Below, piece after piece: positions 1,858 to 23,585 of a stretch of DNA of 64,000 nucleotides. How positions within the stretch are numbered: the stretch's first letter is position 1; every line of letters begins with the position of its first letter. The stretch comes from Patescibacteria group bacterium (lineage in GTDB: Bacteria; Patescibacteriota; Minisyncoccia; Moranbacterales; UBA2206), in the NCBI GenBank assembly GCA_022711335.1, contig JAKLFF010000001.1, forward strand, positions 131,016-195,015. The letters are read 5' to 3'. The position numbers and the translations under genes are program-made. Below the pieces are notes generated by a model. It saw nothing but the letters and a program-made list of their open reading frames with translations. It ran no database searches and had not been told where the DNA came from.

Positions 1858-2191
1858 CAAGCCAGTTATAGACGGCGCCTTTGTGGCTATTGTCTTTGCT
1901 ATGGGATTTTTTTTGCATTGGAAAATATATGAAATTGCCCTTTTTGCTCTGTTTATTTGGATAATTCTCAATCCGATTTTGAGCCGATACCTAGCTTTTG
2001 GGGCGATTTTCTTTTTAATCCTAACGCCGCTGTTTCTTATCGGCGGGAAAAAAATAATTGCTGACCAGCTGGCCATTTTCGCCTACTATTTTCTCATTAT
2101 GGCAGTTATGATGGGAATTTATGAATTGTGGAAAGACAAGCCAGAATCTTCAGGCGCGATTAATAATTTTAACGATAAAATCAATGAATGA
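1823..2191 (+). CDS. Small 3-4 TM membrane protein immediately upstream of GT2 (possible GtrA-like partner); overlaps the upstream gene end
   Basis: It is a 122-aa hydrophobic ORF. Its 3' end runs into the GT2 start. A GtrA-like small protein paired with a GtrB-like GT2 is a known arrangement. No diagnostic motif was seen. Confidence 0.3.
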   Translation: MAERKLLKKLVSKPVIDGAFVAIVFAMGFFLHWKIYEIALFALFIWIILNPILSRYLAFGAIFFLILTPLFLIGGKKIIADQLAIFAYYFLIMAVMMGIYELWKDKPESSGAINNFNDKINE

Positions 2192-8383: not shown

Positions 8384-8405
8384 TTGCGTAATTAATTACT
8401 TATGA

Positions 8406-8436
8406 AAAACAACCATGTTTCCGGGGTTGTTTTTGA
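8406..8436 (+). terminator. Rho-independent terminator after the tandem mini-gene array
   Basis: Hairpin AAAACAACC-N10-GGTTGTTTT followed by a T-run. Confidence 0.5.
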
Positions 8437-8491
8437 GTGTGTTTTATGCGACAATGGAGAAAGAAAATAATTTAAAAGTGATTTTGACATC

Positions 8492-9631
8492 ATGAAAGTT
8501 TTGTTTTTAAACTATGAATATCCGCCATTGGGCGGGGGAGCGGGGAACGCCGCTTCTTGTATTTTGCGGGAATTTTCGAAGATTCCTGATTTAGAAGTAG
8601 ATTTTGTGACTTCTTCGCATGACGAAGATTTTCATCTGGAGGAAATTGGAAGCGGCGTGAGAATTCACAAGCTTCCGATTGGAAAAAATCAGAAAAATCT
8701 TCATTTTCAGTCAAAAAAGGATCTCTTAGTTTATTCCTGGAAAGCCTATTGGTATTCCAAGAAACTGATAAGGCAAAATAAATATGATTTGAGCCATTCA
8801 TTTTTTTCTGTTCCTTGCGGTTTTTTGTCGCTGGTTTTTAAACGGAAATATAAAATTCCTTATGTTATTTCTCTTCGCGGAGCGGATGTGCCCGGATATT
8901 CGGAACGATTTTCTTTCCTTTACAAAATTTTGACGCCTCTTATCAAATTAATCTGGAAAAAATCCGGCGCGGTGGTTTCCAATTCGGAAGGGCTCCGAGA
9001 ATTGGCTTTGAAATCAAATCCAAAGCAGCCGATAGAAATAATCTGCAACGGAATCGACACGGAAAAATTCAAACCGGGGGAACCAAATAGGGAAAAATTC
9101 ATAATAACCCTGGGCGGAACGCGGGTGACGGCCAGAAAAGGAATAGCTTACCTCATTGAAACTGTTCGCATGCTGTCTCAGAAATATCCGAATGTATTTT
9201 TGAAAATTATAGGCGAAGGGGATGAAAAGAATGATCTCGAGAAGATGTCCCGAAAATTGGAAATTGGAAAAAAAGTCGAATTTTTGGGTCGGATTGAAAA
9301 CAAGGAAATGCCTTCCTATTATCAGGAAGCATCGGTTTTTGTTCTGCCGTCGCTGAACGAAGGCATGAGCAACGCGATGCTCGAAGCACTGGCATCAGGC
9401 CTTCCCATAATTGCGACCGACACCGGAGGAACAAAAGAGATTGTTAGGGACGGAAAAAACGGATTTATTATAAAAATGAAAGACAGCCAGGATATCGCGG
9501 ATAAAATAGAAATTTTGATAAAGGATGAAAATTTGCGCCGCAAAATGGGGGAAAACAGCCGTAAATATGCCCAGAGTATGAATTGGGAAAGCGTGGCAAA
9601 TAAATATTACGAGATTTATAAAAAGCAATGA
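8492..9631 (+). CDS. GT4-family glycosyltransferase
   Basis: N-terminal MKVLFLNYEYPPLGGGAGNA. C-terminal GT-B domain with EX7E-type region (SNAMLEALASGLPIIATD). Confidence 0.85.
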   Translation: MKVLFLNYEYPPLGGGAGNAASCILREFSKIPDLEVDFVTSSHDEDFHLEEIGSGVRIHKLPIGKNQKNLHFQSKKDLLVYSWKAYWYSKKLIRQNKYDLSHSFFSVPCGFLSLVFKRKYKIPYVISLRGADVPGYSERFSFLYKILTPLIKLIWKKSGAVVSNSEGLRELALKSNPKQPIEIICNGIDTEKFKPGEPNREKFIITLGGTRVTARKGIAYLIETVRMLSQKYPNVFLKIIGEGDEKNDLEKMSRKLEIGKKVEFLGRIENKEMPSYYQEASVFVLPSLNEGMSNAMLEALASGLPIIATDTGGTKEIVRDGKNGFIIKMKDSQDIADKIEILIKDENLRRKMGENSRKYAQSMNWESVANKYYEIYKKQ

Positions 9632-10557
9632 ATAGAAAATACCTAAAAATATTTTTTAAGATAATCGTAAGCCTAATTTTTGTTTATTGGGTTGTTGTCA
9701 AAACCGACTGGCCAGAATTTTTGTTTTATCTCAAAAAAATAGAAATCTGGCAGATTGGATGCTATCTCTTTTTTCTTGTTGTTGGAATGGTTATCTGTTC
9801 GTACCGCTGGAAAATACTGGCTGAATTTAAAGGCATAAAATTGCCGCTTTGGGAATATTTCAAGCTGTATTTGACCGGAACTTTCATTAATAATTTTATG
9901 CCTTCTTTTGTGGCTGGAGACGCTTATAAAGCCTATCAGATCGCCGGAGCGGAAAAAAGATACGCTGAGGCGACTTCCTCGGTGCTTATGGACAGAATCA
10001 CGGGGCTTTTGGGAGCAATGATCCTGGCGCTTATTTTCAGCCTTATAAACATCAAAACGGTAATGGGCAATAAATGGCTTCTTCTGGCCAACATTGGAAT
10101 CGTCCTTTCTTTTTTTGTGGATCTGGTTATCGCAAAACTTCGGGAAATAAGCTGGCTCAAGAATTTTGTTTTCAAAATAATACCCCAGAAAATTACAATT
10201 TTTCTTCGAGAACTTTATTCTTATAACAATAAAACCGGCGCAATAAGCCGGGCAGTTTTCATATCTATCTGGTTTTCTCTAATCGGGATAGCGCTCTTAA
10301 ACTACATTTTATTTCGGGGACTGGGAGTAGAAATCGGAATTTTGGATTATCTTTCCGTAATTTTCATAATCAGCATCGTTTCAGCCTTGCCAATTACAAT
10401 GAACAATATCGGCCTCAAAGAATGGGCCTACATCACTTTTTTTGGGTTTTTCGGAGTCAGTTCCGGGGCGGCAGTCGCGGCGTCAATTATCAGCCGGTTT
10501 TTGCAGATGCTGGTTAGCTTTCTTGCTTTTCCGATTTATATAAAAAGCAAAAAATAG
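9628..10557 (+). CDS. Lysylphosphatidylglycerol-synthase-TM-like ('flippase-like', UPF0104) polytopic membrane protein
   Basis: Start overlaps the GT4 stop (ATGA). About 8 TM helices. Motif FINNFMPSFVAGDAYKAYQ matches the F-x-N-x3-P-x3-G-D/E-x2-K signature of this family. Confidence 0.55.
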   Translation: MNRKYLKIFFKIIVSLIFVYWVVVKTDWPEFLFYLKKIEIWQIGCYLFFLVVGMVICSYRWKILAEFKGIKLPLWEYFKLYLTGTFINNFMPSFVAGDAYKAYQIAGAEKRYAEATSSVLMDRITGLLGAMILALIFSLINIKTVMGNKWLLLANIGIVLSFFVDLVIAKLREISWLKNFVFKIIPQKITIFLRELYSYNNKTGAISRAVFISIWFSLIGIALLNYILFRGLGVEIGILDYLSVIFIISIVSALPITMNNIGLKEWAYITFFGFFGVSSGAAVAASIISRFLQMLVSFLAFPIYIKSKK

Positions 10558-10565
10558 GCGATTGT

Positions 10566-12377
10566 TTATTTTAGGGCTTGCGCGCCTGAAGACAACTTTT
10601 TCCAGGTAAGAATTTGTGAAATTTGGATAGCCTGTTCGGAAGGCTGTTTTTTTGAAAGATCTTGAGCGTCTAAAGTGGAAGATTGGGGTTTTGGGGAAAG
10701 ATAGAGGACATAAAGAGAGCCGAAGTCTTTATTTTCCGCAATATCAAATGCAGCTCCAAGCATTTTGGTGTCTTTGGCTTTTTTCGAAAGGCTGCTCGAT
10801 ATTAGGAAATAATTCCCTTTGCGATAAATATCCTTGTCTATATCAGGATCATAGCTGAAATAATCATAGGGAATATTTTTTTTATCGAAGAAATACCAAA
10901 AAACCGGATCAAGCTCATGAATGCTTTTTAGATAAACCGGAAAGCCATTGTTCTCATATTTCTCGGCCATATAATCCAAAATCATAAGTTCTTGCTGGAG
11001 CGTTATTCTAGAATTGTCGGGAAAAACGTCTTCAGTTTCAAATCGCGCTTTTTTGTCGTAAGGCGAATTTTTCAGCTGCTTGAAATTTTCAAAAATTTTT
11101 CCAATATTGGAAAATAAAAGAAACAGGATTATCAGTGAGAATATCAAATAACGGAGAGGATTTTTCATGGAAAATACAAACTCTAGAATCAGCCCCAAAA
11201 ATATCATTGCTAGCGGAGCGGAGATTAGAAAAAATCGGGGATAGATATAGAAACCGTCATAAGTTATTAAAAGAAGGAAAAGGAAGGTGGCGATGAGCCA
11301 CAAAGCACAAATTGTCAGAAAATCTTTTTTTTGCTGATTTTTTTCCCGGGTCAGGCGAAAGGCAAGCGCGGATATTCCCGATATCCAAAAAAGAAAGCCG
11401 GCGATCCGGAGCGGCGCATCGTCGGAGCAGGTTTTGCAGAGAATTCCGGCGTCATATCCCTTGAGCCGTTTTCCGTTTATTGAATCTATGCCGCTTATGA
11501 CCAGAAAATATTCCAGCGCGTTATATCTTGCGTCCTGGAATATTTTTTCGCCCAAATTTTTTGAATTTCCCGCGTCTTCCTTATTTTCCTTTAAGCCTGC
11601 TTCCTTAAGCCCCAATTTTTCAAGAAAATAGCTGAAATTTTGGCCGTGGGTTTTTATATCGCTTATGATCATAGGAGAATAAAGAACAAGAAGAACAGTG
11701 AAAGCCGCGGCCCAAATTTTTAGATTAAATGAAGGCCGTTTGATGAGCAGAAAAATAATAAAAACCAGGGGAATGCTGAAAAAAGAAATAAAATGGATTT
11801 GTGAGGCTATTCCGGCGAGAGCAACTGATGCCAGGAACCAGGCGTTTTTTTTCGGCTCATTTTTCAAAACGCTGCGAAGGAGGCAGTAGAATGCCGCCAA
11901 AGCCAAAAAAGGCAGGACATTCGGACTCCATGAAAACCGGGAATAAGTTACCAAATAAAGTGAAACCGAAAAGATAGCAAAGATGCCGAGTGAAATCGGA
12001 ACAGAAAAATATTTTTTTGAAAAAAAATAGAAAAGAGGAAGGGAAAGGATTGATAGAATTAGAACTTGCATGGCATGTCCGGCGGGATTATTTCCGAAAA
12101 TTTTGGCGCTCAGATATTCCATATAATAAAAAGCCGGGCCAAGCCGAAGCGATCGCCCGCCTCCGGCCGTAGGTCCGAGAAGAGGGAGGTTGGAAATCCC
12201 GCTTTCCACAGCGGGAGAGACCAAAAGAGTGTCGTAAGTCTGATCAATTTCAAAATGGAGCCAGTCGGAAAAATGATAAGAACGCAAAAAAATCCCTATT
12301 AAAAAGATAATAAGGAAAATAGCGAGCGCCAGCTTATTTTTCCCGGCTTTTTCCATTTGTGATTGAAAAAAGTTCAT
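10566..12377 (-). CDS. GT-C fold membrane glycosyltransferase, ArnT/PMT (GT39/GT83)-like, paralog 1
   Basis: Shared paralog motifs FLRSYHFSDWLHFEIDQ and LGPxxxxxxLRLGPAFYY near the N-terminus. About 11 TM helices plus a C-terminal soluble domain. Confidence 0.75.
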   Translation of the reverse strand: MNFFQSQMEKAGKNKLALAIFLIIFLIGIFLRSYHFSDWLHFEIDQTYDTLLVSPAVESGISNLPLLGPTAGGGRSLRLGPAFYYMEYLSAKIFGNNPAGHAMQVLILSILSLPLFYFFSKKYFSVPISLGIFAIFSVSLYLVTYSRFSWSPNVLPFLALAAFYCLLRSVLKNEPKKNAWFLASVALAGIASQIHFISFFSIPLVFIIFLLIKRPSFNLKIWAAAFTVLLVLYSPMIISDIKTHGQNFSYFLEKLGLKEAGLKENKEDAGNSKNLGEKIFQDARYNALEYFLVISGIDSINGKRLKGYDAGILCKTCSDDAPLRIAGFLFWISGISALAFRLTREKNQQKKDFLTICALWLIATFLFLLLITYDGFYIYPRFFLISAPLAMIFLGLILEFVFSMKNPLRYLIFSLIILFLLFSNIGKIFENFKQLKNSPYDKKARFETEDVFPDNSRITLQQELMILDYMAEKYENNGFPVYLKSIHELDPVFWYFFDKKNIPYDYFSYDPDIDKDIYRKGNYFLISSSLSKKAKDTKMLGAAFDIAENKDFGSLYVLYLSPKPQSSTLDAQDLSKKQPSEQAIQISQILTWKKLSSGAQALK

Positions 12378-13084
12378 AGGCTTTTAAGAACTTTGTATTC
12401 AGGAACCAGTTCCGGATGAAAGATGATCTCCACTTCCGAATGGTTGTTAATGCCCTGGATGCAGGCATTCAGATCATGATTCCAGTCAAAACTGATCATA
12501 TAGTCAGAAGTGGCCATTGATGATTTTCTAAACTGCCAACCGTCCATCTTTTTTAACAGGTTTAGGATAGCGCAAACTTTGTTTTTGTGGCGATATGTTT
12601 CTTTGCCGAAACGGATGTAGCCTATGCCGTATTTTTCAGAAAGCCTCAGGAATTTTTTGAAATAGGGCGGGAAAAAATGGATATGCTCATGCGAGCTTGC
12701 GCCGTCAGGAGATTTCCCGAACATATTTTTAAAATCCAGAATTTGACGTTCCCATTCCCGCGCAATAACAGCCGGCCGGTTGTGGCCGAAAAGAAAATTA
12801 TAAAGAAATAGAAATATTCTTTTTATAGCGCCCTTTTCGATGACGCGGGGATTATTTTGCCAAAAATCCAGCCGATCTTTGGCAAGATGAAAGTGGATAT
12901 CCAGCTTTACGCCTGAAGCCAGGAGGCGGGAAATATGCTCTGGCGAGAGATTTTTGCTGATCATTATTTCCACTCGATCAAGCTTTTTTGCTTCGGCCAA
13001 TTTCAAAATATTGGCGCTAGCTGTCTGGCTAATGCCAAAATCATCCGCAGAAACAATGATTGTTTTTCCGCCAAGTTTAATCAT
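12374..13084 (-). CDS. YdjC/ChbG/HpnK-family carbohydrate deacetylase-like protein
   Basis: N-terminal IIVSADDFGIS (DDxG metal site) and conserved His-rich segments. 4-bp overlap with the downstream GT-C gene. Confidence 0.65.
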   Translation of the reverse strand: MIKLGGKTIIVSADDFGISQTASANILKLAEAKKLDRVEIMISKNLSPEHISRLLASGVKLDIHFHLAKDRLDFWQNNPRVIEKGAIKRIFLFLYNFLFGHNRPAVIAREWERQILDFKNMFGKSPDGASSHEHIHFFPPYFKKFLRLSEKYGIGYIRFGKETYRHKNKVCAILNLLKKMDGWQFRKSSMATSDYMISFDWNHDLNACIQGINNHSEVEIIFHPELVPEYKVLKSL

Positions 13085-13124
13085 ATTCTAATTGTAATAT
13101 ATAAATCAAAATAAGGAAAATACG

Positions 13125-13985
13125 TCAGTCGTTTGGCAGAGTCAGGGTCAAGGAATATCCTTCTTTGCCTTTTTGGGAGAGAGAAGGGATGATATAGTAT
13201 TCGATCCCGTTTATATTTTTATGCCACTCATTAATATGAAAATGTCCGGCCAGGACATATTTAACATTGCCGCTATCTTCGAACATTTTTTTCAGATATT
13301 CCAATTCAGGGTAAACTTTCTCAAAATCAAATCGGTCAAATATGGGCACGTGCATAGCTACGGCTATTTTTCGATCGGTTTTTAAAACCTCTTTGAGCCA
13401 TTCTACCTGCTCCGGTTCCATATATCCGCGCGGGATATATGCTTCTTTGGCGTAATCAATGGAGTGGTCTATATTGCCGTTATCCAAAATGACAAATCTC
13501 CATTTTCCCTTATCTATATAATAATGGTTAATCGGCTGAAATTCTTTGAATATCTCATCGTCTTCATGGTTGCCCTTGACCCAGGCCATAGGATATTTTT
13601 TAGTAAGATCTTTAATTTTTTTCGCATATTTTTTGCTGGGTTTATTTAGGCTGTCGCCGAGAGCAATTATCAGATCGCAATCTTCCATTTTTTCCAAAGC
13701 GGGCTTGAAATTTTCCTCGAATCTGGACGGGTATAGGATGTTTTCGTCTTCGAGTCCCTGGGTGCGCAAGTCCTGGCTGCCGGCATGAATGTCCGCGACA
13801 AAGCCGATAGTTATGGTTTGGGGTCCAATCAAAGATAAACCATGAAAAATAGTTTTATAATTATAGCCCGAAAAAAACCAGCCGCTGCCGACAGTTATTG
13901 CCGCTGAAGCCAAAAAAAATGCCGCAAGAAAAGGATGGAGGATTATTTTGCTGGATGCTTTTTTCACAATGCTTTTTATATCCAT
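13125..13985 (-). CDS. Membrane-anchored calcineurin-like metallophosphoesterase, copy 1
   Basis: N-terminal TM helix. MPE motifs DIH, GDSLN, GNHED, MHVP, GHFH. Confidence 0.8.
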   Translation of the reverse strand: MDIKSIVKKASSKIILHPFLAAFFLASAAITVGSGWFFSGYNYKTIFHGLSLIGPQTITIGFVADIHAGSQDLRTQGLEDENILYPSRFEENFKPALEKMEDCDLIIALGDSLNKPSKKYAKKIKDLTKKYPMAWVKGNHEDDEIFKEFQPINHYYIDKGKWRFVILDNGNIDHSIDYAKEAYIPRGYMEPEQVEWLKEVLKTDRKIAVAMHVPIFDRFDFEKVYPELEYLKKMFEDSGNVKYVLAGHFHINEWHKNINGIEYYIIPSLSQKGKEGYSLTLTLPND

Positions 13986-14001
13986 AATAATCGCTGTTTT
14001 T

Positions 14002-15669
14002 CTAAAATTTGTGACAGCTGCTGGCTTCTTTCGGATCGCTGGCAGGATTTTTTGCTTTGGCGTCTATTACCAGAATATTTCCAAATTTAAGCTGGTTTTT
14101 GATTGTGAATTGGCTGTTAAACTCTTCCGGCATCTCTTCATTTATGCTTCTTCTGTAGATGAAAAAATGATCTTCGTTTCCCGAGAGATGAAACGAGCTT
14201 GTTTTTATGTAACAAGCCGGAATGCCGTGTTCATATTCAAGAAGATAAAAAACAGCTCTGGCAAAAGTATTATCAACCACGACTCTCACGGGAGAATTTG
14301 TTTTTTTGTTCTCTATGATATAGGCTACTGCTCTTTCCATCTGTTCCAGGGTGACCTTCATATCATCATAAATTACGCGTCCAACCATATCTTCAACATT
14401 GTCTTTGGCCAAAGCTTTGTGCTGGCGCAAAAAAGTTATGTCATTTTTTACATTGAAAAAAATAAAAGCAGATGCCATGAGAACGACTGCCAAATTAGCA
14501 TGTCGACCAAAAAAAATTTTTGTTTTTTCAAAAATCATTCCTAAGAACACAAAAATTGGAGGAACAGCTGCCAGATAATAGTAAGGAGACATCCTATAGA
14601 TGATAGGAATAGAAATTATGAACATCAAGCCAGCCCATGCCCAAGACATGAAAATAAATTTTTTACGATCCCTATCTTGTTCGCGGAGATAAGAAAAAAT
14701 ACTGGCGGCGATACCCGCCAGAAAAATGAAAGTTTGCGCAATGAGAAAGGGAAGATCTTTACGGCATTGCTTGCTACAAACAGGAAGAAATTTTTTAGAC
14801 AACTTCATGGAACTGCCATGTTCGTCGGCGGTTATCATTTGCCAATTGATTATCTCCATTTTTTGAAAAGCGTAGAATGTCTTGTCAGCAACGTTGTGGT
14901 CGTCTTCAGCGGTGGGAACTCTTTCCATTGTGTTTTTAAAAAGCAATTTAGTATTGTCACCCTTTGTTGTTATCTCGCTGATGATCATGGGGAAATAAAG
15001 GGCTAGAATGATTAAAAATCCAAAAAAATATTGCTTAAATTTTAATTTTGGCTTCCAAATGATGAGGAAAATAATTATCAGAATTGGAGCTATGAAAAAA
15101 TAAATATAATGCAATTGAGTGGCTATTCCTGCGCTAAAAATAGCCAAATAAAACCAGCCGGGATGAACGATATTTTTCCAATCGGCTTTCAAAAGTCCGA
15201 AAAGCGCGAGTAGCGTGAAAAAAGGAAGCGAGTTGGGATTCCAGGCAAAACGCCCATATATGACTAAAAAAAGCGAAGTGCCGGCTATGGCGGTGAGGGC
15301 CAGAGAAGTTATTTTTGAAAAATAAAGCCGAAAAAATGGATAAAGAAGAGCAACAAAAAGGACGGAAAAAAACCAGTCGGGAATGGCGAAAGAATTTGGA
15401 TTGGTTCCAAATAAAAAGGCGGAAGCAGATAAGAGATAATAATAGGCAGGACCAAGCTGAAGAGTGCTGCCTGATATATGCGGCCCTAAGAGCGGTATTT
15501 TGCTAAAACCTTCTCTAACAAAATTTCCGACAATTATCGCGTCTCTGGATTGGTCCAGCTGGAAGCTTAGAAATTCCTTATGCTGATATGATCTTAGAAA
15601 TATAGCGGTAAATATTATGGCAGCAAGAATCACATATTCTGTTTTGAAGATTTTTTTTAAATGCCGCAT
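14002..15669 (-). CDS. GT-C ArnT/PMT-like membrane glycosyltransferase, paralog 2
   Basis: FLRSYQHKEFLSFQLDQSRD and LGPHISGSTLQLGPAYYY. Polytopic. Confidence 0.75.
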   Translation of the reverse strand: MRHLKKIFKTEYVILAAIIFTAIFLRSYQHKEFLSFQLDQSRDAIIVGNFVREGFSKIPLLGPHISGSTLQLGPAYYYLLSASAFLFGTNPNSFAIPDWFFSVLFVALLYPFFRLYFSKITSLALTAIAGTSLFLVIYGRFAWNPNSLPFFTLLALFGLLKADWKNIVHPGWFYLAIFSAGIATQLHYIYFFIAPILIIIFLIIWKPKLKFKQYFFGFLIILALYFPMIISEITTKGDNTKLLFKNTMERVPTAEDDHNVADKTFYAFQKMEIINWQMITADEHGSSMKLSKKFLPVCSKQCRKDLPFLIAQTFIFLAGIAASIFSYLREQDRDRKKFIFMSWAWAGLMFIISIPIIYRMSPYYYLAAVPPIFVFLGMIFEKTKIFFGRHANLAVVLMASAFIFFNVKNDITFLRQHKALAKDNVEDMVGRVIYDDMKVTLEQMERAVAYIIENKKTNSPVRVVVDNTFARAVFYLLEYEHGIPACYIKTSSFHLSGNEDHFFIYRRSINEEMPEEFNSQFTIKNQLKFGNILVIDAKAKNPASDPKEASSCHKF

Positions 15670-15674
15670 TTTTT

Positions 15675-16451
15675 CTAGTTCAAAGTTAGTTTCATGAAAT
15701 ATTGCGGATATTCTGATCCGGAAACCGAAGGAAGGATATAATAATGCACGCCGTTATAAACTTTGTCCCAAAGCCGGCTATGCAGATGCCCCATAAAAAC
15801 ATATTTAACGTTGCCGGCGCCGGAAATTACCTTTTCTGCTTCAGTATATTGAGGAAGCAATGCGTTTTCATCCCGGCTGGGAGAAAAGAAAGGAATATGT
15901 GTGACAATCAGAACTTTATTATCTGTTTTTAGCGAATTTTTCAACCAGTTTAGTTCGTCTAGATCAATGTCGATATCATGATCTAGCATCACTATTCTCC
16001 AACCGGCTTTATCGTAATCATGATAATAATAATCGACGTCAGAAAATGTTTTGAAACATTCTTTATCGTGGTTGCCTTTAGCCCAGAGGACGTTGAATCG
16101 GGAGAGCAACTTTATCAAATTATCGGCATAAGGATGGCACTTATTGTCATCATTAACATTATCGCCCAGGGTAATAATCAAATCTGGCCGGGAATCCATA
16201 AGAGGTTTAAGGTTATTTCTGTATTCTTTTGGATAGACTACGGCTGATTCACTATGACCTTTTTTTTCCGGTCCGACATGAATGTCGGTGACAATAGCCA
16301 CATTGAGAGATTTTTTATTTTCAATGTCTGGCTTGGCAAGATAGATGAACTTATAATATATCCCTCCGGCGATTGCCAACAAAATTATCAGAATAATAAT
16401 TTTTTTGTTTTTTTTAAAAAAGGCGAGAAGCTTATGGAGTATTTTTTTCAT
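15675..16451 (-). CDS. Membrane-anchored calcineurin-like metallophosphoesterase, copy 2
   Basis: N-terminal TM. Motifs DIH, GDNVND, GNHD, THIP, GHLH. Paralog of 13125-13985. Confidence 0.8.
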   Translation of the reverse strand: MKKILHKLLAFFKKNKKIIILIILLAIAGGIYYKFIYLAKPDIENKKSLNVAIVTDIHVGPEKKGHSESAVVYPKEYRNNLKPLMDSRPDLIITLGDNVNDDNKCHPYADNLIKLLSRFNVLWAKGNHDKECFKTFSDVDYYYHDYDKAGWRIVMLDHDIDIDLDELNWLKNSLKTDNKVLIVTHIPFFSPSRDENALLPQYTEAEKVISGAGNVKYVFMGHLHSRLWDKVYNGVHYYILPSVSGSEYPQYFMKLTLN

Positions 16452-16463
16452 ACGAGTAGGTTG

Positions 16464-18065
16464 TTAGTTTTTTAGAAGAAGGATGGTTAGCCCGGAAAGT
16501 TTTTTTCCGGCTGCCACTTCAAGATTCCATATTTTTTGTCCTATAGGAATTTCCCCAGGTTCATTCTCTTTCAGATAAAAAACTCGATTCTCGGGGTCGA
16601 TTTCATCCAGGCCGTCTTTTTTGAGAAGAGCGGTTTCAATCCCAGCTTTTTTAGTGAGATAGTTAACCGGCCGGAAAAATCTTTCCGCCAGGCCATTTTG
16701 GCCTCCGAGATGAGACTTGGAAGATGTTTTTGGAGAATTTTTCAAAATAAATTGAGAAATTGCTTCCGATTCGGAGAGCGTGCTGTTTTTAGAATTATTT
16801 TCCAAGCCTTTTCTATAGCTATCTGCTGTTCTGGCGTCCCTGGCCAAACAAAGAACGATAAGAATGGTTATTATCGCTATGGCCAATCCCTTGCCTTTGG
16901 AAGAAAATCTTTTTTCCATCTCCAAAATAATAAGCCCCAAAAGTACCAGCGGGATCATGTAGAGATTGATAAAATATCCAACAAACATGATTTTAGCGAT
17001 AGGGATCAATATGATGAATGAAAAAAAGTTGAAAAGAATAACAATTCCCAGAAAATTTTTCTTTTGCTGGTCTTTTTCCTGGAAAAAATATCTGAATAAC
17101 AAATAATATCCAACCAGAGAAAAAAGAACGCTCAGGGCCATGCCCAGGTAATATTTTAAATTTTCCGCTTGGGTGCCTTGTGGTGCGTAAAAAACGGCTT
17201 TGCATGGATCATCGTTGCCAAAAGCAGAAATAGTGTGCGAATTAGCCAGTATTTGGCACGCGCTAATGTGAAATGTAGCCCGTCCCAAATGACTGCTGGA
17301 GCTGGAGCTGTTAGTAAAGCCTTTTATGAAATATTTGGTATTTTTTCCGCCAGAATCAAGTTCGGATATTATTTGGGTTGTATTTAGAGCTAATGCCAGA
17401 GTTAGAATAATCAGGAAAATTTTCCAGATGTTGGGGGTTTTTTTCCGTAAAATGTAAATAAATACCAAAAAAGATATCGGCGGCAGGGCGATGAGCAATG
17501 TTGTATGGAGCTGGATACAGACACCTATGCCAATTCCGTTAAGGACAGCCCAAAGGTAGGTTCTTTTTTCGTCCGGGTTCATCAGCTTCAGCAGGGAATA
17601 CAGATAAACAAGAATAAAAAAGGGAATAAGATTGGGATTGGAAGAAAAACGGGAATTTATCACAAGAAAATAAGAAACACTCATTATGGCGGTGAGTGCC
17701 AGAGAAATTTTATCGCTGAAATATTCTTTCAGGAAAAAGAAAAGCAATGGAATAGCCATAATGGAAAAGAAAACACTCGGATAAGCCATTTTGTCCGGAT
17801 AGCTGCCGAATATCTTTTGCGACACATAGGAAAATTGATAGTATATCGGACCCAGTCTGAATTTTGTGACGCCCGCGTTAGGACCCAGATATGGCAAATG
17901 ATCTTTGCCTTCCAGCGCATCATCAATAAGTTTTATGTCCCTGACTTGATCGCGGCTGAATCTAAGCCAGTCATGAAATTCATAAGTTCGAAGAAATATT
18001 CCGACAAAGACAATTATGGCCAGAACAATTATTATCGTTTTGTTTTTTTTGAGAAAGTCGGGCAT
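16464..18065 (-). CDS. GT-C ArnT/PMT-like membrane glycosyltransferase, paralog 3
   Basis: FLRTYEFHDWLRFSRDQVRD and LGPNAGVTKFRLGPIYYQ. Polytopic. Confidence 0.75.
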   Translation of the reverse strand: MPDFLKKNKTIIIVLAIIVFVGIFLRTYEFHDWLRFSRDQVRDIKLIDDALEGKDHLPYLGPNAGVTKFRLGPIYYQFSYVSQKIFGSYPDKMAYPSVFFSIMAIPLLFFFLKEYFSDKISLALTAIMSVSYFLVINSRFSSNPNLIPFFILVYLYSLLKLMNPDEKRTYLWAVLNGIGIGVCIQLHTTLLIALPPISFLVFIYILRKKTPNIWKIFLIILTLALALNTTQIISELDSGGKNTKYFIKGFTNSSSSSSHLGRATFHISACQILANSHTISAFGNDDPCKAVFYAPQGTQAENLKYYLGMALSVLFSLVGYYLLFRYFFQEKDQQKKNFLGIVILFNFFSFIILIPIAKIMFVGYFINLYMIPLVLLGLIILEMEKRFSSKGKGLAIAIITILIVLCLARDARTADSYRKGLENNSKNSTLSESEAISQFILKNSPKTSSKSHLGGQNGLAERFFRPVNYLTKKAGIETALLKKDGLDEIDPENRVFYLKENEPGEIPIGQKIWNLEVAAGKKLSGLTILLLKN

Positions 18066-18081
18066 CTTGGTTTAATTTATT

Positions 18082-20406
18082 TTAATTATTAAGATCCATT
18101 AATTTTTCTCCGGAAATTATTTTTACGAAATTATTCGGTCTTCCTCCAATCTCAAGCTTATAGTCGTAAACATTTTCCGAATAGAACTTGTTTATAGCTT
18201 CGGATATTTTGTCTCCCCCGATTACTTTTCCGGCGGTCATTTTGGAGGTTCGCGATTCTCTTCCTGAGGATACTACGAAATAATCGATTTTTTCCATGTC
18301 TTCAAAATCAAATCCGCTGCGGCAAGTTCCTACGAAAAAGGCGCAAACTCCGCGCTTGTCAGTCCATGCGACCAGCTTCTCGGCATCGGGCAGATTATTG
18401 AGATAAATGGCGGCTTCATAGCTTCCGTCTCCCATATCTTTGAGATTTAAAACGTAATTTCTCGGTAAAAGATCAGAAGCGTAGCTGAAATAAAAGGGCT
18501 TGATCGAATTCAAACTGTAAAGGCTGAAAATGAAAACAATAAGATAAACAAGGCCGGGAGCGATATATTTTTTGATTTGTTTGGCGTTTATAAATTGGTA
18601 AATTCCAATGCCAGAAAGGATCATAGCGAGAGGGTAGAGGATAATTTGATATCTGACGGTAGCGCTGACTCCGGAAATTGTGGAAGCCAGATAATAGAAG
18701 ATAATAAAAAGAACGATGCAGGTAGACCAGACAGTTGTTTCACCGTACGCCTTTTTTTTTGGAAAAATATTGGAAAGGCTCCCGAAAGACATGGCCAAAA
18801 AGGCTAAAGGAGTGAGGCCGAAAATCAGAGAATAAAAGTTAGCCAGCATCATTCCCGCGAGCCCTTCAAAAGTCTTCGAAGATTTGGGTGAAGCTAGAAT
18901 TGCCTCTAAGTCATAGAATCTCATTCCCAGATAAGTGTCAGCTAAAGTCGAAATAATCAGAAGAATAAAAATTGAATTTATGGCGATGATCAAAAAAGAT
19001 TTGTATTTGGATAAAAAATCAGTCAAAGGAGCAATAATTTTGTTTTTTAAAAAAACTATGTCAAAGAGCGTGAGGGCGATTATTCCCAAAAAAACAGGCC
19101 AGATCGAGAGAAAGGCTTTAGAAAGAATGGTTCCCTCAAGCACTCTTCCGGCATTAACCCAGGCAGCCGGAAGAAAAACAAAAAAAGTTGCTAAAGAGAA
19201 AAAAATCAGGGTGAAATAATCGGCAAAAACAGCCTTAAAATAATTTGCCGGCCCCATTTCTTTGTATTTTCGGCTGTTTAGAATATATTCCAAAAATATC
19301 AGCCCAAAAAAGAACACGTATAAAATATTGGCTACGTATTTTGTCAGCAGAGCAAATCCCAGGAAGATCCCGCACCAATATAAATATTTGTTTTCATGGT
19401 TTTTGAGATAAACAAAATAAGCGATTAAGGAAAGCGGCGCAAACGTCCAAAGAAGGCTGTCCGGATTGATTATAATCGAAATTCCGATAAGCAGCGGGGA
19501 AAGGCCGATTAAAATCAAAGAAATAAGCGCGGCAGTTTCTCCTGATAATTTTTTAATCAGAAAGTAGAAAATCAGGAGCATTAGGCAATTGAAAAGGAGA
19601 AGCGGAAATCTAAGAGAAAAATTTAAATCCCTGGTATCAAGATAGTTTCCCAGATTTTCTCCTTCCCAGTGGGAGTTCTTGTAATACATCGGATTTACCC
19701 AATTTAGCGCCACTCCTGATATGATAGCGACAGTGATGCCCGGCTTGTCGCTTACCATGGTTTTTTGAAATTCTCCGTCAGCTACATTGCTCCAAAATTT
19801 GGGAATTCGGCCATGAGACCAGAGAGGCTCGTCAACGGCGGCAAATTCAGCGATATGATAGCTACCGAATCCTAAATTCAAGGCAATTACCGAAACAATT
19901 ATGGCTATTTTGATAAACTTTGATTTTTTGTTGATTCCTTTTGCGGCAGCGGATTCATTTTTTTTCCAAAACTCTTTGAAAAAATCTTTTATTTTCGAGT
20001 ATTTTTTATGTTTGGAAACAAAATAAAAACCGAATAATATGAAGTAAATTCCGACAAATGGGCGCAAAGTATACATGTAAATATCATTTTCATATTTCAA
20101 GTCAAAATTAAAATAACTGCAGATCAAAACCAGTTCCATGGGAAAAAAAACAAAAATGATTTTTTTTATTGCAAGCAGGCTTTCGCGCGAATTTCTCGAA
20201 TAATATTTAAGAATTCCTGCTAAAAAAATTGCCAGGATTATGTAGGTGAAGCTGATTTTGTTGATTCCAAAAAAACTGAGAAAACTGCTTTTTTGAACTC
20301 GCAAGTAAAAATAAAAGAAGGTATTTAGCGCGAACAAAAATGAAGCAGAGAAAAGCGACAGATTTTCCAACGTCAAAAAACTCTTTAATTTTTTGTCGAG
20401 TTTCAT
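18082..20406 (-). CDS. Large (774 aa) polytopic membrane protein, probable GT-C glycosyltransferase with N-terminal extension and C-terminal soluble domain
   Basis: More than 12 predicted TM helices. A DE-containing first-loop segment (AAVDEPLWSHG) resembles the conserved acidic loop motif of ArnT/PMT enzymes. It is first in the long minus-strand operon. Confidence 0.45.
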   Translation of the reverse strand: MKLDKKLKSFLTLENLSLFSASFLFALNTFFYFYLRVQKSSFLSFFGINKISFTYIILAIFLAGILKYYSRNSRESLLAIKKIIFVFFPMELVLICSYFNFDLKYENDIYMYTLRPFVGIYFILFGFYFVSKHKKYSKIKDFFKEFWKKNESAAAKGINKKSKFIKIAIIVSVIALNLGFGSYHIAEFAAVDEPLWSHGRIPKFWSNVADGEFQKTMVSDKPGITVAIISGVALNWVNPMYYKNSHWEGENLGNYLDTRDLNFSLRFPLLLFNCLMLLIFYFLIKKLSGETAALISLILIGLSPLLIGISIIINPDSLLWTFAPLSLIAYFVYLKNHENKYLYWCGIFLGFALLTKYVANILYVFFFGLIFLEYILNSRKYKEMGPANYFKAVFADYFTLIFFSLATFFVFLPAAWVNAGRVLEGTILSKAFLSIWPVFLGIIALTLFDIVFLKNKIIAPLTDFLSKYKSFLIIAINSIFILLIISTLADTYLGMRFYDLEAILASPKSSKTFEGLAGMMLANFYSLIFGLTPLAFLAMSFGSLSNIFPKKKAYGETTVWSTCIVLFIIFYYLASTISGVSATVRYQIILYPLAMILSGIGIYQFINAKQIKKYIAPGLVYLIVFIFSLYSLNSIKPFYFSYASDLLPRNYVLNLKDMGDGSYEAAIYLNNLPDAEKLVAWTDKRGVCAFFVGTCRSGFDFEDMEKIDYFVVSSGRESRTSKMTAGKVIGGDKISEAINKFYSENVYDYKLEIGGRPNNFVKIISGEKLMDLNN

Positions 20407-20488
20407 AAATTTTGGCTGTTATTTGTTATTTGATTAAAAACAAAAAATAACCTACAATTGGAGTATTCACAAATATTATACAGGCAAA

Positions 20489-22288
20489 TTGATGAAAAAT
20501 AAAGCCCTTGATTTTTTTAGAAAAAGAAAAAATTTCCTCATTGTTTCTTTTGCTGTTATTTTTCTTATTGGCGTCTTTTTACGCGCCTATCATTTTTCTG
20601 ACTGGCTGCATTTTGAGCTGGATCAATCAAGAGATGCCAAGGTCATTGATTTGGCTGTTGAGGAAGGGCCGTCCAATTTGCCCCTTCTTGGGCCCAAAGC
20701 AGCCGGAACTTTCCTGCGTCTCGGGCCGGCTTTTTATTATTTCAAATATCTGAGTGCGCTGGTTTTTGGCAATACGCCTTCCGGGGTGGCAGTGATTATT
20801 ATGATTTTTGGAATTTTGGCTATCCCGGTTTTTTATTTATTCGTAAAAAGGTATTTTAGCGAGTCAATATCTTTGGGCCTAATGCTTATTTTTTCTGTTT
20901 CTCTTTTTCTGGTTATGTATTCAAGATTTTCCTGGAATCCTAATCCTTTGCCGCTGTTTACGCTTTTGACTTTTTATTTTCTGCTTCGGGCAGTGGATAC
21001 AAACGAAAGCGAAAAGAAAAGGGGAATTTGGCTGGTGGCTTTTTCAGTATCATTGGCGATTGCTACCCAGTTTCATTTTTTGGCTTTTGTGGGCGTGCCG
21101 GCCATATCTTTTCTGTTTCTAGTTGTTAAGAGGCCTAAAATAAAAATAAAATACTGGCTTTTTTCCATTGCGGCGATCGTTTTTCTCTATTTGCCGGCAA
21201 TAGTCAATGATTTTGAAACCGGCGGCGATAATATCGGCCAGTTTTTGGAAGTCGCCCGGGGGAAATCGGAAAAAAGCGAGCATGATATCGTTGAAAAGAT
21301 CGTAAAAAGCTACAATGAAAATTCCTTGGGATACGCAACAGTTTTATTTGGAATTGAAAAAAGGGAGCTTCCCCGGGTTATTTTTGAAAAAAATAAGCTG
21401 TTTAGTTTTATATGCGATGCGGATTGCAAAAGCGAGTTGGGGATGGGAATTTTTTCGCTTCTGTTTTTCACTTTGGGCGCGGTTTTGCTTGTCGCAAATG
21501 CCGTGAAAGAAAAAGATCCTAAAAGAAAAGATTTTTTAATCCTGGCATCTATCTGGTTCTTTGTTGTTTTGGGGCTTTATGTTCCCATAGCTTATAATAT
21601 TTCTCCCCGCTTTTTCCTTTTAGCGGCGGCTATTCCGTTTATCTTTTTGGGATTTGTGTTTGAATTTCTGGAGATTACCATAAAAAACAAAAAAATAAGT
21701 CCGATGTTAACAATAGTTCTTATTTTAGCTGCCAGCGGCTATAATCTTTGGAAAATAAATCAGCGCTTTTGGCAGTTGCAAAATGCTTCTACTCAATCTT
21801 TTAAAGTGGAAACAGACAGGATTCTCAAGGAAAAAACGAGAGTAACGCTAGAACAGCAAAATAAAATAATAAATTACATTTTATTAATACAAAAAAGCAA
21901 CGGCTATCCGGTTTATCTCAACAGCGATCCGGAATACCGAAGATCATTTCTTTACCATCTTGATAGAAATGATATTCCCAGAGATGACTTCAGAAATGCG
22001 ACAAATAGCGATAAAGTTTATGAACATGGAAATTATTTTTTGATTTACCCAACGTTTTCCAACTGGAAAAAAGATCTGGATAAATACGCAGGAAAATTCG
22101 ACCTTGCGAATCAGAAAGAATTTGGAACTCTGACGCTTTTTGAACTCAAGCCAAGGCTAGAGGCTGTCAACGCCGTAGAGCAGGATTTTTCAAAAGACAA
22201 GTCGAAAGGATCATCCGGAACGCCTAAAAGATTTAAGTGGGATGAAATATTTAATGAAAATAGTGATGATGAAAATACTAATGATTAG
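20489..22288 (+). CDS. GT-C ArnT/PMT-like membrane glycosyltransferase, paralog 4 (divergently transcribed)
   Basis: FLRAYHFSDWLHFELDQSRD and LGPKAAGTFLRLGPAFYY. Acidic C-terminal tail. Confidence 0.75.
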   Translation: MMKNKALDFFRKRKNFLIVSFAVIFLIGVFLRAYHFSDWLHFELDQSRDAKVIDLAVEEGPSNLPLLGPKAAGTFLRLGPAFYYFKYLSALVFGNTPSGVAVIIMIFGILAIPVFYLFVKRYFSESISLGLMLIFSVSLFLVMYSRFSWNPNPLPLFTLLTFYFLLRAVDTNESEKKRGIWLVAFSVSLAIATQFHFLAFVGVPAISFLFLVVKRPKIKIKYWLFSIAAIVFLYLPAIVNDFETGGDNIGQFLEVARGKSEKSEHDIVEKIVKSYNENSLGYATVLFGIEKRELPRVIFEKNKLFSFICDADCKSELGMGIFSLLFFTLGAVLLVANAVKEKDPKRKDFLILASIWFFVVLGLYVPIAYNISPRFFLLAAAIPFIFLGFVFEFLEITIKNKKISPMLTIVLILAASGYNLWKINQRFWQLQNASTQSFKVETDRILKEKTRVTLEQQNKIINYILLIQKSNGYPVYLNSDPEYRRSFLYHLDRNDIPRDDFRNATNSDKVYEHGNYFLIYPTFSNWKKDLDKYAGKFDLANQKEFGTLTLFELKPRLEAVNAVEQDFSKDKSKGSSGTPKRFKWDEIFNENSDDENTND

Positions 22289-22492
22289 TTTTTTTGAAAA
22301 AATAAAAAGACCGGGCGGTCTTGTGTGCGACTTGGGATAAGTATGAATGCGAGTTTCGCATTAGGAGTCCTTATCGACAGCCATATAGACTATCTGCCTC
22401 CCTAACCTATCCGGTTATCGCACACTGCCTCGGTCTTGTAATGTGCAACAATCCTATCATATTATTAAAATTTTGTCAATAGCCAACGGTAA

Positions 22493-23497
22493 TGTCCACA
22501 CACATTTGGCGGTTTTTCCAGAATAGCGATATTCTGGAAAATGAGTATCAATATGCCAAAAACAATTAAAGAAGAACGGCTAAGGTGGATTTTGCCTGTT
22601 ACCAGAAAGGAGGTAAGGTTAATCGATGTGACCAAGGTCTGCCCGCACAGTAAACGTAGTCTGGAAAGATGGGTAGCAGCCTACAAAGAGTACGGAGAGG
22701 AGGGATTAATCCCAAAATCAACCAGACCCAGAACAAACCCCAATGAAACACCGATAAGGATCAAGGAAAGAATTATCGAACTCAGAAAGGATAAAAAGAA
22801 ATGCGCCCTGAAACTGAAATGGCAGTTGGAAAAAGAAAACATTTTTATCCACAAAAATACCGTTCATAAAATCGTTAAAAGCGAGGGTTTGGTAAGGAAA
22901 TACAGAACCAGGAAATTAAAGTACAAATATATCAAAATTCCGTTAGCACCAGGCGAATTAGTGGAAATTGATGTTAAATATGTGCCGGAAACAGTGGGAA
23001 ACAAGCAGTATTATCAATTTACAGCCATCGACTGCGCTACCAGGTGGAGATATCTGAAAATCTATGATGATTATTCCAGTTTTAATTCCATAAGGTTTTT
23101 AAAAGAATTAATTGCTATCACTTCGTTTAGAATCAGAGCCATCAAGACAGACAATGGAAGTAATTTTACTAATCGATATACGGGCTATCTCAAGAGTTCT
23201 GACCCGATAAATCCCAGGCTTCATCCTCTTGATATTTTTTGTCAAAAATACAACATCATCCATTACCTGATTGATCCAGGAAAACCAGCTCAGAACGGTA
23301 AAGTGGAAAGAAGCCATCGCGAAGACCAGGAGAAATTCTATGAACGTGTCTCATTTAAAACATTAAGGGAGTTGGAAAAAAAGATAAAAATATGGAATGA
23401 TGAATACAACAATCTGGAACATTGTTCCTTAAATGGAAAAACACCAAATGAAATGTTAAAAATACTAACTATCTAATGCGACAAATGTCTGTGTACA
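22493..23497. mobile_element. IS481-family insertion sequence (approximate boundaries)
   Basis: Imperfect terminal inverted repeats TGTCCACACACATTTGGCG (22493-22511) and CGACAAATGTCTGTGTACA (23479-23497) match at 16 of 19 positions. They flank a single rve-type transposase gene. Length is about 1 kb, as for IS481. No clear target-site duplication was identified. Confidence 0.5.
22541..23476 (+). CDS. IS481-family DDE transposase (HTH + rve integrase core)
   Basis: Catalytic D...D...E spacing (AIDCATRW, KTDNGSNF, NGKVERSHRE). N-terminal HTH. Confidence 0.85.
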   Translation: MSINMPKTIKEERLRWILPVTRKEVRLIDVTKVCPHSKRSLERWVAAYKEYGEEGLIPKSTRPRTNPNETPIRIKERIIELRKDKKKCALKLKWQLEKENIFIHKNTVHKIVKSEGLVRKYRTRKLKYKYIKIPLAPGELVEIDVKYVPETVGNKQYYQFTAIDCATRWRYLKIYDDYSSFNSIRFLKELIAITSFRIRAIKTDNGSNFTNRYTGYLKSSDPINPRLHPLDIFCQKYNIIHYLIDPGKPAQNGKVERSHREDQEKFYERVSFKTLRELEKKIKIWNDEYNNLEHCSLNGKTPNEMLKILTI

Positions 23498-23585
23498 AAA
23501 CACTATTTATCTATTTTTTGGAAAAAGAAAAGAGGCTGTATCTCTAAAATCAGAGATACAGCCTATAAGGTCACAGGTGAAATGT

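Follow-up and report, generated by a model that had tools for sequence, protein, structure and literature searches.

The region 10566-22288 of the 64-kb window analyzed here (by window is meant the whole stretch of DNA presented above), from a Candidatus Moranbacteria bacterium (Parcubacteria, candidate phyla radiation, CPR), harbors seven co-directional genes on the minus strand (10566-20406) and one divergent gene on the plus strand (20489-22288). Together they encode five PMT_2-type GT-C glycosyltransferases, two metallophosphoesterases (MPEs) with a single transmembrane segment each, and one YdjC-family deacetylase. Homology, fold and synteny make it very probable that this region is the extracytoplasmic half of a Parcubacteria envelope-glycosylation locus with a three-component logic like that of the Arn, Gtr and Rgt systems, and the cluster probably builds or edits a cell-surface glycoconjugate. 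The MPEs, whose association with GT-C genes recurs in related genomes, are tentatively assigned the editing of phosphoesters on the acceptor or product of the transferases. The composite of the locus-level model and this editing role is the best explanation of the whole, at somewhat less than an even chance of being right.

A sequence-only reading, made earlier from the letters of this DNA, had given the same open reading frames (ORFs), strands and gene order. From 20406 to 10566 the minus strand carries the genes for the 774-aa GT-C, GTC3, MPE2, GTC2, MPE1, YdjC and GTC1, separated successively by 16, 12, 5, 16 and 40 bp and, at the last junction, overlapping by 4 bp. GTC4 diverges from this operon across an 82-bp gap, with ATG at 20492 as its likely start (598 aa from there). 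The family assignments were likewise upheld, with five matches to PMT_2, two to Metallophos and one to YdjC, all above the Pfam gathering scores. The conserved core among strains corresponded to 8489-22487 (98.4% identity to L001; related loci are designated by L numbers), the flanks being variable, and about half of the window consisted of surface-glycan genes. The promoter and terminator scan was uninformative, with 51 promoter-like sites against 43 ± 6 expected.

Glycosyltransferases and the putative donor module

The five GT-C proteins scored 26.4-53.8 bits against PMT_2, whose gathering cut-off is 26.1 bits. GTC1 to GTC4 were mutually recognizable by BLASTP at 28-40% identity, the closest pair being GTC1 and GTC4 (40%), and GTC2, with 28-31% identity to the other three, formed a divergent long branch in the tree. 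The earlier count of five GT-C paralogs was correct for these four, which form one family with an ArnT-like fold, but not for the 774-aa protein, which showed no similarity to GTC1-4 by BLASTP or hhalign, has only the Pfam family in common with them and, judged by sequence, is a different PMT_2 lineage; the set of five paralogs was therefore rejected. Seventeen related loci carried homologs of the 774-aa protein, often 2-3 each. Orthologs of GTC1 were found in L026 and L039 and that of GTC2 in L039 only, while the GTC3 orthogroup included L028 and L029. The GTC4 orthogroup was the most conserved, with at least 512 homologous clusters, from Parcubacteria; the 120 best matches listed presented at least 49% identity and bore the source name 'glycosyltransferase family 39 protein'.

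The N-terminal motifs that had been noticed as common to the GT-C paralogs were confirmed, since residues R31, Y33, L39, F41, D44, Q45 and D48, as well as the LGP motifs L66-G67-P68 and L77-G78-P79-Y82, were unvarying in 23 homologs. D44, Q45 and D48, invariant in 23 sequences including the four window paralogs, directly follow the first transmembrane helix, the loop position of D44 and D48 having been taken from the hydropathy profile and an AlphaFold2 (AF2) model, and such invariant residues fit the catalytic first external loop of GT-C enzymes. The model of GTC4, the only GT-C modeled, reached a predicted local distance difference test score (pLDDT) of 82.3 and a predicted TM-score of 0.83. 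Its top Foldseek matches were ArnT structures (5f15 and 5ezm, E-values 4e-8 to 7e-8, TM-scores 0.45-0.54), with further matches to STT3, AglB, AftA, ALG12, DPY19 and PMT. No solved structure matched the GT-Cs by sequence, in either single-sequence or profile searches, and the link with ArnT thus comes from the fold search. Moreover, GTC3 scored 21.4 bits against the ArnT equivalog NF009784, which has a cut-off of 567, and the other GT-Cs did not match it. The use of a polyprenyl-phosphate-linked sugar donor by the GT-Cs is suggested only by a neighboring gene for an ArnC-like GT2.

This GT2 gene belongs to a module that the sequence-only reading, in drawing the locus too narrowly, had missed: the genes for GT2, a UDP-glucose 6-dehydrogenase (Ugd), a GT4 glycosyltransferase and an MprF-type flippase-like protein, at 2121-10557. 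The GT2 matched the NCBIfam profile of the undecaprenyl-phosphate 4-deoxy-4-formamido-L-arabinose (Ara4FN) transferase at 1.9e-50, over profile positions 8-313 of 316, and that of PgfS over its full length at 4.4e-44, both scores lying below the equivalog cut-offs; it is likely to be a polyprenyl-phosphate glycosyltransferase making the lipid-linked donor. Ugd would supply UDP-glucuronate. Its homologs were found in seven loci, adjoining GT4 in L037, L038 and L045, and this conservation suggests a uronic-acid donor. The partial NCBIfam matches of GT4 included BshA, MshA, MGlcDAG synthase and IagA/BgsA, and the flippase-like protein scored 66.3 bits against TIGR00374 (cut-off 43.2). The pair formed by GT4 and the flippase-like gene was kept in L010, L014, L026, L028, L037, L038, L039 and L045, and the whole block of GT2, Ugd, GT4, flippase-like, MPE and GT-C genes was syntenic in L037, L038 and L045.

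In the case of the YdjC-family protein, the Pfam match covered residues 9-226 (88.8 bits against a cut-off of 29.7), and the protein presented no hydrophobic segment, as expected for a cytoplasmic enzyme. The equivalog level was not reached for ChbG (44.5 bits against 227) or HpnK (34.5 against 232.6). The gene recurred in one of the 37 other loci, L039, of a sister species, and YdjC was consequently rejected as a core component, being absent from the other 36. The earlier proposal that the deacetylase may trim an N-acetylated sugar donor found partial support: de-N-acetylation of a lipid-linked sugar has a precedent in NaxD, a YdjC-family enzyme that de-N-acetylates undecaprenyl phosphate-linked N-acetylgalactosamine (PMC11279074), but the enzyme is not part of the conserved system. 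Its presence suggests that a lipid-linked N-acetylhexosamine is de-N-acetylated in this lineage in a NaxD-like manner.

Metallophosphoesterases and their linkage to the transferases

Both MPEs scored above the Metallophos cut-off of 21.5 bits, and the dimetal motifs DxH, GD, GNH(D/E), H and GHxH were unvarying in 16 family members, with D65, H67, G110, D111, G138, N139, H140, H212, G247, H248 and H250 as invariant residues. MPE1 and MPE2 each possess a single N-terminal hydrophobic helix, and one N-terminal transmembrane segment was found in 53 of 54 family members, so that the earlier description of membrane-anchored enzymes with a complete motif set was correct. Across the 54 sequences, lysine and arginine amounted to 273 residues before this segment and to 101 among the 15 positions that follow. 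By the positive-inside rule, such an excess predicts an N-in/C-out orientation for the whole family, and the catalytic domain is accordingly predicted to be extracytoplasmic, as had been proposed. A weak Wzz Pfam match in MPE2 (E-value 0.0011, residues 5-36) was dismissed as similarity between transmembrane helices.

The AF2 model of MPE1 (pLDDT 86.9) was matched by Foldseek at the top ranks with GpdQ and Rv0805 (probability 1.0), and the MPE family profile recovered the same two proteins among PDB sequences (Rv0805, 6e-15; GpdQ, 2e-9). Lower-ranked relatives were Lmo2642, ADPRibase-Mn-like enzymes, purple acid phosphatases and sphingomyelinase-like enzymes, with acid sphingomyelinase and SMPDL3A among the lower-ranked Foldseek matches of the MPE1 model. 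The proximity of Rv0805 and GpdQ in both profile and fold indicates that the MPEs are of the diesterase type. Source annotations of family members read CpdA or Icc, and the CpdA/SpdA equivalog level was not reached in NCBIfam (28.6-33.5 bits against cut-offs of 225-400). The family is small, with about 90 clusters scoring better than 1e-24 before a sharp drop; all informative source names were Moranbacteria or Parcubacteria, and nearly all MPE loci outside weak outliers were Patescibacteria.

The earlier reading had proposed the GT-C/MPE pair as a module, and the pairing proved to be conserved in related genomes. When representative genomes of GTDB were scanned for the pattern of the MPE alignment, 30 loci were obtained, 23 of them from Patescibacteria (including two with mislabeled or generic record titles and the same type of gene content), and the window proteins were searched against the ORFs of the surveyed loci, some of the negative loci being short contigs. 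An MPE gene was located within about 3 kb of a GT-C gene in 13 of the 23 Patescibacteria loci, covering 17 of 26 MPE genes, and 10 of the 26 abutted a GT-C gene on the same strand, several pairs overlapping by 4 bp (L007, L014). Similarly, in six of ten further metagenomic contexts the MPE gene was within 3 kb of, and embedded among, 2-6 PMT_2 genes (L037, L038, L039, L041, L043, L045); it was loosely linked in one (L042) and unlinked in three (L040, L044, L046). The combined figure was 19 of 33 loci with a GT-C gene within 3 kb of the MPE gene. In L043, five PMT_2 genes follow the MPE gene, and one GT-C clade lay directly downstream of an MPE gene in six of its eight members. The identical seven-gene order was found in a second species (L039, with an MPE1 ortholog 72% identical), and the same locus occurred in 22 metagenomic contigs with identical MPE1, which argues against a chance arrangement. 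MPE1 itself is identical to a protein in an NCBI metagenome-assembled genome of a Candidatus Moranbacteria bacterium. The GT-C/MPE cluster was also syntenic across Moranbacteria and Paceibacteria. The pairing is therefore frequent, not obligatory, and no description of it, or of this CPR cluster, was found in the literature searched.

Some further observations concern individual loci of this survey. The contig of L015 (CAZSCV010000002.1), titled 'uncultured Bdellovibrionales bacterium', presented an organization nearly identical to that of the Moraniibacteriota metagenome-assembled genome L017, with tandem MPEs and the same GT-C set, and is probably mis-binned or mislabeled. MPE genes away from GT-C genes (L042, L044, L046) tended to lie near other phosphoesterase genes (Metallophos; PF04185 Phosphoesterase), with ABC-2 transporter genes near the MPE gene in L042 and L044, and PAP2 lipid phosphatase genes in L044 and L046. 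Such neighbors may hint at a lipid-phosphate role.

The frequency of the linkage bears on whether the MPEs belong to the glycosylation system at all. They could instead be incidental neighbors in a large envelope island, acting as scavenging or signaling ecto-phosphodiesterases on glycerophosphodiesters, nucleotides or cyclic nucleoside monophosphates (cNMPs). CPR bacteria are scavengers, and this habit agrees with such a role, as do the best solved relatives, GpdQ and the cNMP phosphodiesterase Rv0805, the CpdA or Icc source annotations, and the roughly 40% of contexts unlinked to GT-C genes. However, MPE clades that have diverged deeply (28-45% identity) show the linkage repeatedly, together with translational coupling of MPE and GT-C genes, and chance adjacency to a GT-C gene in a genome of about 1 Mb would be expected in a few percent of cases at most, against the 10 of 26 MPE genes that abut one. 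Moreover, the CpdA/SpdA scores of about 30 bits fall far below their cut-offs. An incidental neighbor is therefore rather improbable.

The alternating order of GT-C, MPE, GT-C and MPE genes in the window had also been read as a [GT-C + MPE] cassette recently duplicated in tandem, whose copies would be redundant or newly diverging. The sequences argue strongly against it. MPE1 and MPE2 were 34% identical by BLASTP and GTC2 and GTC3 28%, and DNA similarity between the two cassettes was limited to a 94-nt stretch, 70% identical, over the GT-C N-terminal motif. In neighbor-joining trees with homologs from related genomes, MPE1 and MPE2 fell into different ancient clades and the four GT-Cs into separate orthogroups, with orthologs of the copies in other genomes. 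Recent tandem duplication was therefore rejected and is very improbable; the low identity, the dissimilarity at the DNA level and the separate clades point to ancient paralogy or to assembly by rearrangement. In L037 and L038 the order is simpler, with a divergent GT-C gene, one or more 774-type GT-C genes leading into one or more MPE genes and, in the opposite orientation, the genes for the flippase-like protein, GT4, Ugd and GT2, which suggests assembly by insertion or rearrangement.

Proposed role and competing explanations

In the proposed mechanism, Ugd would make UDP-glucuronate in the cytoplasm and the ArnC-like GT2 would load a sugar onto polyprenyl phosphate. GT4 would glycosylate another lipid-linked substrate, to be moved outward by the MprF-type flippase-like protein with which GT4 is co-translated. 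In this lineage only, the cytoplasmic YdjC protein may de-N-acetylate a lipid-linked N-acetylhexosamine before flipping. On the outside, each of the five GT-Cs, presumed to have the ArnT fold, would transfer a sugar from a polyprenyl-phosphate donor to a surface acceptor, for which neighboring Wzy-type polysaccharides, a glycolipid or proteins are candidates. The outward-facing MPEs, as phosphodiesterases of the Rv0805/GpdQ class, would most likely remove or trim a phosphoester on the acceptor or product and thereby allow its glycosylation by the adjacent GT-C.

This editing role is favored because the MPEs are co-transcribed, and often translationally coupled, with the transferases and are not stress-regulated, and because a precedent exists in Rhizobium, where the extracytoplasmic phosphatases LpxE and LpxF clear the positions that the uronosyl-transferases RgtD and RgtF fill, the donor being made by the ArnC-like RgtE (PMC7663294). 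In addition, several loci carried two MPEs from different ancient clades, and this occurrence of ancient MPE paralogs alongside GT-C paralogs points to substrate-specific partners rather than to a generic housekeeping enzyme.

Several points weigh against this reading. The nearest characterized relatives of the MPEs cleave diesters that are soluble (cNMPs, glycerophosphodiesters) rather than phosphates bound to lipids or polymers, and the phosphatases of the Rhizobium precedent belong to PAP2 and not to the MPE fold. The outward orientation is a prediction of the positive-inside rule, and for every enzyme role in the mechanism the substrate is inferred. No GT-C::MPE fusion was found among 102 MPE family members (146-361 aa). 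The GTDB relatives nearest to MPE1 (41-44% identity; L008, L009, L011, L012, L013) form a tight clade located among SpoU, HAD, ApbE and enolase genes, with no GT-C gene nearby, and the MPE genes of L040, L044 and L046 also lie away from GT-C genes, so that linkage is not universal. Finally, no GtrA-type flippase was found when the window ORFs were scanned, and the MprF-type protein has its flippase role by assumption.

The main rival to phosphoester editing is salvage of the carrier lipid, in which the MPEs would cleave undecaprenyl diphosphate (UndPP)-linked glycans, UndPP itself or stalled undecaprenyl phosphate (UndP)-linked sugars, returning polyprenyl phosphate. Bacillus subtilis UpsH (YpbG), a single-transmembrane metallophosphoesterase, does this with teichoic and teichuronic acid precursors, releasing UndP from the UndPP-linked form (PMC11898649). 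The window itself encodes two pathways with a phosphoglycosyl transferase and Wzy-type components, which generate UndPP-linked glycans; UndP-sugars are phosphodiesters, in keeping with the diesterase class to which the nearest MPE relatives belong; and unlinked MPE genes lie near PAP2 lipid phosphatase genes (L044, L046). Moreover, a tiny cell with many GT-C and Wzy pathways in addition to peptidoglycan synthesis would need recycling. Nevertheless, the catalytic domain of UpsH is cytoplasmic, as protease protection demonstrated, and its gene is SigM/stress-induced and not co-transcribed with transferases (PMC11898649), whereas the charge bias of the present family predicts the opposite orientation. 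Co-translation with a GT-C consuming the same donor would be futile, and multiple ancient MPE paralogs per locus would be unexpected for a generic recycler. In the Arn pathway, ArnT-type GT-Cs release UndP directly and need no phosphatase, which also argues against a salvage enzyme at this place. Carrier salvage is consequently considered unlikely, yet it is the most serious of the competing explanations.

A step at the end of the pathway can also be envisaged, in which the MPE would cleave the phosphodiester or pyrophosphate that anchors the finished glycan to its lipid, either setting the glycan free in the manner of a phospholipase C or sphingomyelinase or moving a glycan-phosphate to the cell wall as LCP proteins do. 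The build of the MPEs is LCP-like, with a single N-terminal anchor and a predicted extracytoplasmic domain, their gene often ends the GT-C operon beside the pair of GT4 and flippase-like genes, and the MPE-fold lipid phosphodiesterases acid sphingomyelinase and SMPDL3A appear among their lower structural matches. These matches were, however, weaker than those to GpdQ and Rv0805, and the MPEs lack the additional saposin and C-terminal domains. To our knowledge, no MPE transfers phosphate groups to peptidoglycan, and glycan release or attachment is accordingly quite unlikely.

CPR/Patescibacteria are ultra-small, many of them being episymbionts whose surface mediates attachment to the host. Should the MPEs prove to be partners dedicated to ArnT-like transferases, they would represent a new extracytoplasmic step in glycoconjugate synthesis, either phosphoester editing or carrier release in the outer leaflet, and would give a testable handle on the CPR envelope. 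If instead they serve to recycle the carrier lipid, the recently discovered principle of UpsH would hold on the external side of the membrane as well, and in a phylum new to it.

Surrounding genes and comparison with known systems

Table 1. Features of the donor module, the GT-C/MPE cluster and the right-hand breakpoint, in window coordinates
Feature	Position	Strand	Remarks
ArnC/PgfS-like GT2	2121..3122	+	Pfam Glycos_transf_2 2.9e-30
UDP-glucose 6-dehydrogenase (TuaD/Ugd-like)	3265..4572	+	three UDPG_MGDP_dh domains; NCBIfam TuaD 2.2e-169
LCAT/PGAP1-like alpha/beta hydrolase (946 aa)	4600..7440	+	Pfam LCAT 2.1e-14, Lipase_2, PGAP1
Small paralogous membrane-protein genes, three in tandem (92, 96, 100 aa)	7491-8383	+	between lipase and GT4
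GT4 glycosyltransferase	8492..9631	+	Glycos_transf_1 1.2e-47; overlaps flippase-like gene by 4 bp
MprF-type flippase-like protein (LPG_synthase_TM / TIGR00374)	9628..10557	+	Pfam 5.3e-34; about 7 hydrophobic segments
GTC1 (603 aa)	10566..12377	-	last operon gene; PMT_2 7.1e-08, 33.3 bits
YdjC-family deacetylase (236 aa)	12374..13084	-	Pfam YdjC 7.2e-25, 88.8 bits
MPE1 (286 aa, single transmembrane segment)	13125..13985	-	Metallophos 2.3e-14, 54.7 bits
GTC2 (555 aa)	14002..15669	-	PMT_2 1.1e-07, 32.6 bits; 5 bp downstream of MPE2
MPE2 (258 aa, single transmembrane segment)	15675..16451	-	Metallophos 1.5e-12, 48.8 bits
GTC3 (533 aa)	16464..18065	-	PMT_2 26.4 bits, marginal against the 26.1 cut-off
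774-aa GT-C	18082..20406	-	first operon gene; PMT_2 3.3e-14, 53.8 bits
GTC4 (598-599 aa)	20489..22288	+	PMT_2 5e-12, 46.8 bits; PMT 1.1e-06
Insertion sequence (IS) transposase (rve, rve_3, HTH_32)	22541..23476	+	right-hand breakpoint of conserved block

The 946-aa hydrolase is a lineage-specific insertion between Ugd and GT4, found elsewhere only in L004 (same species and sequence) and L039; UshA of B. subtilis, by which UndP is liberated from UndP-sugars, belongs to the alpha/beta hydrolases as well (PMC11898649). The three small membrane proteins that follow it share the motif 'LGNLxFxxNxGS ... YWPWINVGLL', presented no Pfam or NCBIfam match, and are kept in L004, while flavodoxin and AAA_14 genes occupy their place in L001-L003. 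Between GT2 and Ugd, L037 (14404-14772) and L038 (14462-14851) carry a small 23S_rRNA_IVP/bAvd-like gene, of which there is none in the window. At the left edge, an ORF truncated at its 5′ end (1-1857; 618 aa shown) encodes a multi-transmembrane protein whose large C-terminal domain is soluble and which terminates in a transmembrane helix; it matched no Pfam or NCBIfam family, its architecture resembles YfhO/AftD-like GT-Cs, and a YfhO gene is located at the equivalent edge of L038.

On the right, collinearity with other strains ends at 22487, and a 510-aa weak-PMT_2 gene is located in L001-L003 and L005 where the window has the IS. The transposase gene is followed by a strong hairpin with a 14-bp stem (23533-23564) and by a 150-aa signal-peptide-like ORF on the minus strand (23586-24038) with no family match. 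Two Wzy-type loci lie beyond, one at 24266-33859 (Wzz-like, radical SAM and Wzy_C/O-antigen-ligase-like proteins, three GT4 and a Bac_transf phosphoglycosyl transferase) and the other at 47997-58012 (a MurJ/Wzx-like flippase, an 868-aa DUF4012 protein, three GT4, Wzz and a second Bac_transf); both are possible sources of acceptors for the GT-Cs. The GC skew is positive to about 26 kb and negative beyond, with the cumulative skew peaking there, and to the right of this point nearly every gene lies on the minus strand; such a switch of skew and strand bias near 26000 is the pattern expected at a replication terminus. The window also carries a XerC/D-type recombinase gene (45026-45847) and a class A RNase P RNA (58123-58461, minus strand, 139 bits).

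Compared with the Arn pathway, the locus presents Ugd together with a GT2 that is ArnC-like over its full length, a putative deacylase for a lipid-linked sugar, and ArnT as the best fold match of its GT-Cs. It differs by the lack of ArnA and ArnB, by a window in which no lipid A genes were seen, and by its CPR host; YdjC stands in place of ArnD and the candidate MprF-type flippase in place of ArnE/F, five GT-Cs replace one, with an ArnT equivalog score of 21 bits against 567, and the MPEs have no Arn counterpart. The Rhizobium Rgt system has in common with it a Ugd-derived uronic acid on polyprenyl phosphate (here inferred from Ugd), several ArnT-like GT-Cs, and extracytoplasmic phosphoesterases (a predicted location here) that precede glycosylation (PMC7663294). 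It differs in that the Rhizobium enzymes are PAP2 phosphatases acting on lipid A, whereas those of the present locus are diesterase-like enzymes of the MPE fold.

In Francisella FlmF2/NaxD/FlmK, a GT2, a YdjC-family deacetylase acting on UndP-linked N-acetylhexosamine and an ArnT-like GT-C act together (PMC11279074). Bordetella LgmABC is a system of the same kind. The same combination of families is encoded here. In both of those systems, however, the acceptor is lipid A and there is no MPE, and in the present locus the YdjC gene is lineage-specific. Monoderm bacteria possess three-component GT2/GT-C pairs, such as CsbB/YfhO with GtcA, and YkcC/YkcB, in which an UndP-sugar is flipped and used by the GT-C to modify a surface polymer (PMC11898649). 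The proposed GT2 route through an UndP-sugar is the same, and GtrA genes adjoin GT-C genes in the Parcubacteria loci L041 and L043, but no GtrA gene was found among the scanned ORFs of the window, its GT-Cs are of the PMT_2 and not of the YfhO type, the paralogs are far more numerous, and the MPE is new.

With UpsH, compared by architecture and description, the MPEs have in common a single transmembrane segment joined to an MPE domain; UpsH acts on envelope precursors linked to the lipid carrier, its catalytic domain is cytoplasmic and it is SigM-induced, whereas the present MPEs have a predicted outward orientation and share an operon with GT-Cs. Rv0805 and GpdQ are the best profile and fold matches and have five metal-binding motifs in common with the MPEs, at about 14-17% identity, but the MPEs are membrane-anchored and Patescibacteria-specific. 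We know of no link between Rv0805 or GpdQ and glycosyltransferases.

In the eukaryotic pathway of glycosylphosphatidylinositol (GPI) and the mycobacterial one of phosphatidylinositol mannosides, lipomannan and lipoarabinomannan (PIM, LM and LAM), a GT4 primes the lipid (PIG-A, PimA), a de-N-acetylase acts on it (PIG-L), and the product is flipped and extended by GT-Cs; in the GPI pathway, the MPE-fold remodelase PGAP5 and a PGAP1-type lipase act late. By analogy only, the window can be said to hold a counterpart of each type of step, and the cluster might be an assembly line for a Parcubacteria-specific, GPI/LAM-like lipoglycan, with the MPEs as PGAP5-like remodelases. In such a line, GT4 would prime a scavenged membrane lipid, YdjC would de-N-acetylate it in some lineages, the MprF-type protein would flip it, the GT-Cs would lengthen it on the outer side with sugars, a uronic acid among them, taken from polyprenyl phosphate, and the MPEs would strip phospho-substituents at defined steps. 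This lipoglycan variant is improbable, and differs from GPI synthesis in that YdjC lies outside the PIG-L family and that the lipase and YdjC are lineage-specific here; if true, it would comprise a bacterial couple of phosphodiesterase and GT-C without a characterized counterpart. Taken together, the components of the locus and its overall logic are known from these systems, while the conserved, family-specific MPE partner, the pair of MprF-type protein and GT4, and the number of GT-C paralogs are new.

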